Positions 3,283-3,691 of a stretch of DNA of 15,323 nt are shown here, one piece after another. The position numbers and the translations under genes were made by a program. The notes below the pieces were generated by a model. That model was given only the letters and a program-made list of their open reading frames with translations. It searched no databases and was not told the origin of the DNA. Origin of the DNA: a virus; UHGV virus genome UHGV-1764124; one strand, given 5' to 3'. Numbering within the stretch: the stretch's first letter is position 1; the number at the start of each line of letters is the position of its first letter.

Positions 3283-3395
3283 GTGCGCTGCTAAGGCACT
3301 GGAGCAAATGGTCAGGATGGTACTTATTCCTGGCCTCTGTTTCAGCATGGCTTTATCTGCTGGCATTAATTTTCAGAGAGGGTTGGATTAAGTGA
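3279..3395 (+). CDS. Candidate micro-ORF encoding a 38-aa single-pass membrane peptide
   Basis: ATG overlaps the alpA-like stop (ATGA) and its TGA overlaps the GTG start of the next ORF; product MSALLRHWSKWSGWYLFLASVSAWLYLLALIFREGWIK has one hydrophobic helix. No strong SD; depends on coupling. Confidence 0.25.
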   Translation: MSALLRHWSKWSGWYLFLASVSAWLYLLALIFREGWIK

Positions 3396-3691
3396 GAAAG
3401 TTAAGCCGACTTGAAAAATATCACATGAATAAGGTTTCAATGCGCAGTCCGTCAAAGATTGTCGCCGTTACTCCTGCGGCGATAGAGATCGAAAAACGCG
3501 CGATTGAAAGAGAGAAAAAAGGGCAATTCCGCATTGCCGCTCACCTTTGGCTTCAGTGTATGGATGTTGCTTCTGGTGATGTTGAACGTGCAAGGATCGC
3601 GGTTCGCAGGGACCAATGTATCACAAAAGGTAACGGCCTTCGCCGTGGCGACTATAGCGGCATAGGATGTTGTGGGGTGGTTTATGACTAA
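3392..3691 (+). CDS. Small regulator candidate, PerC/Pch-like (99 aa from GTG 3392; 88 aa from ATG 3425)
   Basis: Segment IEIEKRAIEREKKGQFRIAAHLWLQCMD ... RIAVRRDQC resembles PerC-family proteins as I recall them (unverified). The 3' end overlaps the methyltransferase start by 8 nt. Confidence 0.5.
   Translation: MRKLSRLEKYHMNKVSMRSPSKIVAVTPAAIEIEKRAIEREKKGQFRIAAHLWLQCMDVASGDVERARIAVRRDQCITKGNGLRRGDYSGIGCCGVVYD

Follow-up and report, generated by a model that had tools for sequence, protein, structure and literature searches.

Small regulators of the PerC type have been described from the virulence plasmid of enteropathogenic Escherichia coli (EPEC), from prophages, where they are called Pch, and from phage-inducible chromosomal islands (PICIs). 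Pch activates LEE1, in the LEE (locus of enterocyte effacement), only under silencing by H-NS, StpA and Hha, and reduces H-NS occupancy (PMC4764244), whereas Pch proteins of groups 2 and 3 (PchD/E) barely affect the LEE, and PchE represses csgD (PMC6265319). As for the PerC-like proteins of PICIs, EcCIMP1_025 represses LEE1, and EcCIEDL933 and EcCICFT073 are inert on it (PMC11773190); from membership of the family one cannot tell which way the LEE will be affected. A further described case is Aar, a member of the family of AraC negative regulators (ANR) from enteroaggregative E. coli (EAEC), which directly binds both H-NS family proteins and AraC-type activators, including AggR (PMC5570504, PMC4983702). 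The present analysis concerns a gene of this kind in a phage, found in the 15,323-nucleotide stretch of the virus genome UHGV-1764124 (this whole stretch is called the window), where a PerC-like open reading frame (ORF) overlaps the start of an adenine DNA methyltransferase gene.

Family membership and extent of the PerC-like gene

A sequence-only reading of the window had proposed a PerC/Pch-like regulator from the resemblance of the segments EKKGQFRIAAHLWLQCMD and RIAVRRDQC to the family signature. These segments, residues 41-58 and 68-76 of the 99-amino-acid (aa) product, proved to be the conserved family core, and the sequence comparisons leave very little doubt that the protein belongs to the PerC family. 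The hidden Markov model search that the reading had called for gave a match above the curated threshold, with the Pfam PerC profile PF06069 scoring 30.1 bits (gathering cut-off 22.6; E 6e-7); epsilon15 gp31, an orthologue, scored 24.2 bits. The match to PHROG 868 (phrog_868) runs over its full length, positions 1-99 of 99 (E 5.7e-62). Alignment with PerC and a Pch gave 40% identity over the core in both: BLASTP aligned the window protein with EPEC PerC over 60 residues (E 2e-10) and with a group-1-type, i.e., enterohemorrhagic E. coli-type, Pch over 40 residues (E 1e-6), the sequences compared being perC from pMAR2 of EPEC E2348/69 and pch from E. coli O26:H11.

In the reverse direction, a profile of 48 subfamily members was searched against 1.84 billion representative proteins and returned 73 hits at E <= 1e-3. 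Two multi-repeat hits (P0134 and P0152) were discarded as unrelated repeat proteins (DUF6253, FIVAR). In a scanned set made up of the window protein and 38 distant hits, 38 of the 39 sequences match Pfam PerC, P0150 nearly over the full length of PF06069, and 24 also match the NCBIfam model ANR_neg_reg. The alignment of the window protein with these 38 distant relatives shows no variation at A49, W53, R73 and C76, and conservation of 90% or more at A37, E41, R47 and L54; all the residues that are invariant in the superfamily are present in the window protein. With tblastn at E <= 10, the only plasmid matches were to one distant PerC group, carried by Salmonella plasmids.

The extent of the likeness differs from that among the founders. 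EPEC PerC and O26 Pch fit PF06069 over its full length (positions 1-90, 143 and 149 bits), whereas the match of the window protein spans profile positions 5-50 of 90, and by this measure only the N-terminal core of PerC/Pch appears to be shared. The same core is recognized by ANR_neg_reg (NF033650), which aligns its positions 7-49 of 54 with residues 35-77 of the window protein (E 3.4e-5), and both PerC and SfV orf40 likewise match this model. Because the relatives of the subfamily match both models in the proportions given above, as does PerC itself, the PerC core and the ANR domain are best regarded, on sequence, as one superfamily. The resemblance had been remarked previously, in a 2025 paper on a PICI-encoded PerC-like protein (PMC11773190).

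Regarding the extent of the gene, the sequence-only reading had given a product of 88-99 aa; the upper value stood, and the 88-aa form turned out to be a truncation. Database models disagree in the same manner, with 83 aa in RefSeq (from the in-frame ATG at 3440), 88 aa in phiV10 (from the in-frame ATG at 3425) and 99 aa in epsilon15. The truncated models lie at 8441-8692 of an E. coli chromosomal record (L001) and at 5421-5687 of the phiV10 record (L002). Starts at either ATG were ruled out by the conservation of residues 1-16 in relatives without those methionines and by the series of first codons at position 3392: at the codon orthologous to GTG 3392, epsilon15 (as ATGA), Tyrion and a Klebsiella prophage have ATG, the phiV10 group has GTG and a single IMG/VR allele has TTG, and in every case compared this codon abuts the stop of the upstream membrane-protein gene. 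In the alignment, the segment LEKYH..VAVTPAA is retained by relatives in which neither residue 12 nor residue 17 is Met.

Selection agrees with this extent. The ratio of non-synonymous to synonymous substitution rates (dN/dS) in codons 2-33 is ~0.3 against epsilon15 and a Klebsiella phage, and the population alleles show 7 synonymous variants and 1 non-synonymous variant in codons 1-33. The 75 IMG/VR loci, which were found with the subfamily alignment, are all ~99% identical and were used for allele counting, not for diversity; they comprise 20 DNA alleles, with 25 synonymous codon variants and 1 amino-acid change. The whole 99-codon frame is kept in every epsilon15-like phage examined (36 phage records, identity 65-99%), the full-frame identity to the window protein being 78% in epsilon15 and SPN1S, 74% in BUCT554, 70% in Tyrion and 64-65% in Klebsiella phages. 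The conserved frame, the selection on codons 2-33 and the ATG/GTG/TTG alternation at 3392 therefore argue firmly that the 99-aa product is real and the shorter models are truncated, with GTG 3392 as the true start; conservation so far above chance likewise marks this as a genuine gene. The 83-aa RefSeq models, which lose the conserved N-terminal segment, would mislead anyone cloning it.

The product (11 kDa, isoelectric point 9.8) is basic and predicted to be all-helical. An AlphaFold2 model built from the 48-sequence alignment has a mean predicted local distance difference test (pLDDT) score of 76, rising to 86-91 over residues 31-70, and places helices at residues 6-18, 28-42, 46-59 and 63-82. 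Foldseek found MIT three-helix domains (E ~0.3), and TPR bundles too, as the best matches in the PDB, and an "ANR family transcriptional regulator" among the best in the BFVD viral models, all non-significant; Pfam also gives a weak MIT hit, and a PDB sequence search with the window protein returned nothing below E ~1. At this low resolution, the fold is predicted to be an MIT/TPR-like helical bundle of the protein-protein interaction type and not a classic helix-turn-helix.

Place in the early-left operon and junction with the methyltransferase

The window is a phiV10-like Uetakevirus (epsilon15-like podovirus) genome of an E. coli phage. The 1.4 kb around the gene are 99.8% identical to E. 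coli chromosomes, occur at >=80% coverage in 537 of 5426 complete E. coli genomes, and are 95-99% identical to phiV10, O157 typing phages 9 and 10, vB_EcoP_ZX5, phiv142-3, TL-2011b and others. Chromosomal copies of the element adjoin guaA. In the window, the ORFs beyond int have the sizes and order of the spanin, endolysin, holin and tailspike genes of phiV10, which therefore places the window in the phage (non-integrated) arrangement. A PerC-family annotation of the gene is already public and not new: RefSeq names it "PerC family transcriptional regulator" (WP_001335975.1, 83 aa), present in ~10% of complete E. coli genomes, and the phiV10 record lists gp34 as "transcriptional activator, PF06069" with 88 aa.

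Across the genus Uetakevirus, the gene is a core member of the early-left operon and not an AT-rich moron. This operon runs, in order, from the repressor gene, terminator and promoter through two small genes, exo, recT, alpA/xis, the 38-aa membrane-protein gene and the PerC-like gene to the MT-A70 methyltransferase and DUF1382 genes, with int convergent (Table 1). Synteny is kept in 7 genomes from four host genera, with exo, recT, alpA/xis, the membrane ORF, the PerC-like gene, 0-2 small genes, MT-A70, small genes and a convergent int, and the gene holds the same position in phiV10, epsilon15, SPN1S, Tyrion, BUCT554 and a Klebsiella prophage. The subfamily is present in phages of Escherichia, Salmonella, Klebsiella, Enterobacter, Citrobacter and others. 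A moron, or a transcription unit of its own, was ruled out by the position inside the operon, by a GC content of 46-50%, which equals that of the neighbors, and by the lack of an internal promoter-like site; the consensus promoter scan and the terminator scan found no promoter-like and no plus-strand terminator-like sites between 570 and 4530. The architecture ahead of the operon fits the repressor operators annotated in epsilon15, whose record places them just upstream of the early-left operon, and the terminator of phiV10. Given the gene order and the consensus promoter scan, early, repressor-controlled expression of the PerC-like gene is likely. An Rfam scan of the whole window and a PADLOC run on the PerC-like protein both returned nothing.

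The 8-nt overlap with the methyltransferase start, on which the sequence-only reading had based its proposal of co-expression, is confirmed, the ORF closing with TAA at 3689-3691, and the same junction recurs across the genus. Its sequence, GGGGTGxTxTATGACTAA, does not differ between the window, epsilon15, Tyrion and a Klebsiella phage, i.e., across four genera and whatever gene comes next, and includes the GGGGTG of the Shine-Dalgarno-like run, conserved in the same number of genera. An alternative methyltransferase start at GTG 3672 was ruled out, since the homologues begin with M[TSP]xKYTLIYADPPW, and the start is therefore placed at ATG 3684.

In epsilon15, Tyrion and the Klebsiella phage, the gene that starts at ATGACTAA is DUF1317 (MTNPHD...) and not the methyltransferase (window 3684-3700 compared with L005 3793-3960, L088 2787-3190 and L089 2787-2950). 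In these phages and in SPN1S, the methyltransferase follows one to three genes later, preceded by a winged-helix gene in Tyrion and by a DGQHR-domain gene in SPN1S. The latter (L110 3020-4015) is a DndB-like, DNA-modification-associated gene inserted between DUF1317 and MT-A70. The phiV10 lineage has no DUF1317, and its methyltransferase begins, as MTKKYT..., on the former DUF1317 start. That the PerC-like gene is coupled directly to the methyltransferase would thus be a derived state of this lineage, which arose because the small DUF1317 gene present in other members was lost, most simply by deletion; what appears to be conserved is the coupling of the PerC-like gene to whatever follows.

The pair has the stop/start overlap, the Shine-Dalgarno-like run within the upstream ORF, the lack of an intervening promoter or terminator and the conserved junction that characterize coupled genes, the translational dependence itself being a prediction. 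Translation would proceed as a coupled chain through the GTGA and ATGACTAA overlaps, so that the PerC-like protein would be made together with the methyltransferase. The stem that GGGGUGG could form with CCACCC, in the codons for the DPPW motif, around the methyltransferase AUG (3673-3721) was no better than in shuffled sequences (z -0.65), and the RNA folds at both gene junctions did not differ from shuffles.

Table 1. Features of the window around the PerC-like gene and along the early-left operon
Feature	Position	Strand	Remarks
PerC-family small regulator gene, 99 codons, GTG start	3392..3691	+	orthologue of phiV10 gp34 / epsilon15 gp31
N-terminal extension specific to the subfamily, codons 1-33 (LEKYH..VAVTPAA)	3392..3490	+	translated, with purifying selection
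PerC/ANR core, codons 35-80 (A37, E41, G44, R47, A49, W53, R73, C76)	3494..3631	+	predicted helices 2-4; Pfam PerC 5-50
GTGA, in which the PerC-like start and the TGA stop of the preceding 38-aa ORF overlap	3392..3395	+	
Shine-Dalgarno-like run GGGGTGG in the Gly95-Val96 codons of the PerC-like ORF	3673..3679	+	5 nt before ATG 3684, the start it would serve
ATGACTAA, 8-nt overlap of the downstream ATG 3684 with the PerC-like stop	3684..3691	+	
MT-A70 family N6-adenine DNA methyltransferase gene, 216 aa	3684..4334	+	Pfam PF05063 E 3e-22; phrog_359; PADLOC MTase_II
Small membrane protein gene, 38 aa (epsilon15 gp32 type, phrog_17484)	3279..3395	+	
AlpA-family excisionase/regulator gene	3034..3282	+	two genes upstream of the PerC-like gene
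Terminator-like hairpin (469-488) after the repressor gene, then promoter-like site (540-568)	469..568	+	probable start of the early-left operon
Integrase gene	4530..5780	-	convergent to the early-left operon

Possible functions of the protein

The best overall explanation, which we hold with moderate confidence and by analogy with the characterized relatives, is an early phage regulator that acts on nucleoid or regulator proteins such as H-NS. The protein would be made early after infection or induction, and not in the stable lysogen, and, like its characterized relatives, would be a small helical module whose task is to remodel repressive nucleoprotein or regulator complexes; the expected outcome would be that silencing is lifted from phage genes and, incidentally, from host genes. 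The narrower proposal that it works by binding H-NS or a regulator is more tentative, and the AT-rich int/attP region (37% GC at 5701-6000) can be named as a possible target only by way of speculation. The hosts of the phages that carry this subfamily all have H-NS, and most have no LEE. At another locus (L107 783-1809), hha (PF05321) comes after a PerC-family gene of full length (84.8 bits); Hha is an H-NS co-repressor, and this adjacency is a context hint that ties the family to the H-NS system.

Several points weigh against this explanation. Fukui et al. failed to co-precipitate Pch and H-NS and favored DNA binding by Pch, and therefore the molecular mode of even the family founders is unsettled. 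The literature yielded no experiments on the window protein or on any Uetakevirus orthologue. The Pfam match covers half of the model, with nothing in the window protein matching the C-terminal half of PerC/Pch (PF06069 positions 51-90), and the ANR_neg_reg score of 23.6 bits does not reach the curated cut-off of 32. Some expression in the lysogen could come from read-through out of the repressor gene, which is upstream and on the same strand. Finally, the result that lysogeny by ZX5, a 97.6%-identical phage, left the adherence and virulence of its host unchanged (PMC9782041) is no test of LEE activation, since this host has no LEE.

Among the alternatives, the one that survives best, although we consider it unlikely, makes the protein a companion in DNA modification, which would control, target or assist the co-translated adenine methyltransferase or form with it an early anti-defense cassette. 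In each of the 7 Uetakevirus genomes examined, the PerC-like gene and MT-A70 stand 0-2 genes apart, and lambdoid genes that encode a winged helix plus a PerC core overlap, or directly precede, methyltransferases of unrelated families. These include Dam of the PF05869 type in SfV and Lys8385Vzw, D12 (PF02086) Dam, with a 4-nt overlap in one case and one gene away in another, and Dam together with a C5 methylase in one case; in another case HsdM/HsdS lie just upstream, and in Pantoea phage AH07 ParB-HTH and depositor-annotated DpdA-like genes lie downstream (L004 3210-4351; L092 1710-2851; L095 454-1748; L096 3001-5693; L098 3001-6191; L102 1-3480; L091 2282-4906). Taken with the Uetakevirus PerC-like/MT-A70 module, these neighborhoods look like more than chance. 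With at least four unrelated methyltransferase families (MT-A70, PF05869 Dam, D12 Dam and C5), HsdM/S and a DpdA-like module among these neighbors in unrelated temperate phages, and with stop and start codons that often overlap, there is a small chance that PerC-core proteins are habitual partners of phage DNA-modification genes.

The weight of these neighborhoods is reduced by the fact that the lambdoid cases share a single genomic slot and are therefore not independent, and that the neighbor counts stand without a control set. This slot, from the replication gene to RusA, commonly holds methyltransferases. Moreover, no methyltransferase is nearby for PerC, group-1 Pch, Pollock, phi456 and the PICI-like, hha-linked and tandem cases, the coupled downstream gene in most Uetakeviruses is DUF1317, and enzymes of the D12 Dam and MT-A70 kinds are known to act on their own. 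If the partnership were real, PerC-core proteins might regulate, target or cooperate with DNA methylation, for instance by clearing H-NS off AT-rich phage DNA or as members of an early counter-defense and counter-silencing cassette, and the virulence role of PerC/Pch would be a later co-option. A functional link with the methyltransferase would also give a first physiological role to widespread small phage proteins, whose founders PerC, Pch and Aar are without a structural mechanism.

Less probable still is an ANR-type anti-activator, which would bind and inactivate a host regulator of the AraC/XylS family, as Aar does AggR, and so dampen a host regulon during infection. The ANR_neg_reg match to the core, its recurrence in 24 of the 39 scanned sequences and the phage "ANR family" structure among the best BFVD matches are in line with this proposal, as is the promiscuous binding of diverse AraC proteins by ANR members (PMC4983702). 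They are set against a score below the NCBIfam cut-off, a signature tryptophan that appears by eye to be replaced, a protein longer than the ANRs, and the result that no AraC-family gene is annotated within 8 kb (17-kb and 11-kb regions around orthologues).

The sequence-only reading had also brought up the activation of host virulence regulons, and a Pch-like lysogenic-conversion regulator, expressed in the lysogen and activating ler/LEE or similar regulons like PchA-C and PerC, is the weakest alternative and very improbable. The family is the same and all core residues are present, phiV10 infects O157:H7, which carries the LEE, and phiv142-3, a phiV10-type phage 97.7% identical in the region, is reported to raise the adhesion and colonization of avian pathogenic E. 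coli (cited in PMC9782041, in an account that implicates no gene). On the other hand, the window protein is without the C-terminal half common to PerC and group-1 Pch, its gene lies inside the exo-recT-xis early operon at normal GC and not, as group-1 pch, between lysis and terminase genes, and orthologues occur in phages of Salmonella, Klebsiella, Enterobacter and Citrobacter, hosts without the LEE. Even within the family, PchD/E have little effect on the LEE and the PICI proteins have none on LEE1 or repress it, as described above, and the ZX5 lysogen was unchanged in virulence. Activation of a virulence regulon by the window gene is thus unlikely and not supported by its context.

Further features and comparison with described systems

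Elsewhere in the window, the DUF1382 gene that follows the methyltransferase (4331-4526) is frameshifted at about 4377-4386, reading GCAAGGCATG against GCAA-ACATG in the E. coli chromosome (L001) and phiV10. This allele occurs in 1 of the 75 IMG/VR loci and could be a sequencing error. A perfect hairpin, ATGCCTTG-AAACTG-CAAGGCAT, results from the change and forms the terminator-like site on the minus strand at 4384-4363, downstream of int. No oac (O-acetyltransferase) gene lies between a membrane-protein gene (7491..7895) and the tailspike ORF (window 7896-11321). The tailspike ORF (8202..11321, minus strand) encodes 1039 aa against ~875 aa in phiV10, and this greater length suggests a different O-antigen specificity from phiV10.

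As annotation, the result changes little. What is added to the existing annotation is a corrected gene model, a PerC/ANR relation limited to the core, an origin for the direct methyltransferase coupling and a lead from the methyltransferase neighborhoods.

The nearest described counterparts are the orthologues phiV10 gp34 (YP_512289), identical save for the first residue, read as V or M, and epsilon15 gp31 (NP_848239), 78% identical over all 99 residues. Both occupy the same slot, from the 38-aa membrane-protein gene to the DUF1317/MT-A70 genes, and differ only in their annotated starts. By gene content, the PICI elements of EcCIMP1_025, EcCIEDL933 and EcCICFT073 are also alike, since they combine a PerC-family gene with an AlpA-family gene and a P4-type integrase, as the window phage does. 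Tandem pairs of PerC-type genes are found on some elements (L100 609-1673; L108 463-1050), and one such pair stands directly after an AlpA-family gene, which recalls the order alpA then PerC-like gene in the window phage and the PICIs.

The lambdoid winged-helix plus PerC-core proteins (SfV orf40, Lys8385Vzw gp47 and Pantoea AH07 gp46; PHROG 1324) have the PerC core followed, in several of them, by a (Y)(S/G/A)G(I/V/L) tail, and their genes stop at, or a little ahead of, the point where an adenine methyltransferase gene begins, as the window gene does. They differ in having a MarR-like winged helix of ~70 residues where the window protein has a single short helix, and in their location in the early-right (post-replication) region, the window gene being early-left.

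The ANR family, i.e., Aar of EAEC, Rnr of C. rodentium and the homologues in enterotoxigenic E. coli and V. cholerae, would share the three-helix core of the window protein. Matched by eye, A10, E14, A22, W26, R47 and C51 of the ANR signature (PMC4983702) correspond to A37, E41, A49, W53, R72 and C76 of the window protein, W43 of the signature being apparently replaced. ANRs are 55-70 aa long and accompany AraC-type activators, whereas the window protein has 99 aa, with extra segments at both termini.

With EPEC PerC and group-1 Pch, finally, the window protein shares small size, helical character, the core A..(L/I)E..G.(W/Y/F)R.AA..W...(M/D)......R...A.(K/R)R..C and a DYSGI/NYSDI motif after it. 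It is without their C-terminal ~40 residues and has instead its own 33-residue N-terminal extension and a GVVYD tail. Their genes are also placed differently, perC in perABC on the virulence plasmid pMAR2/pEAF and group-1 pch as a moron between lysis and terminase genes, against the core early operon for the window gene. A "PerC family" label on a prophage gene should therefore not be taken to mean "virulence activator": the subfamily of the window belongs to the early core genes of an entire phage genus, has just the core helices in common with PerC and Pch, and appears closer to the protein-binding regulators of the ANR type.

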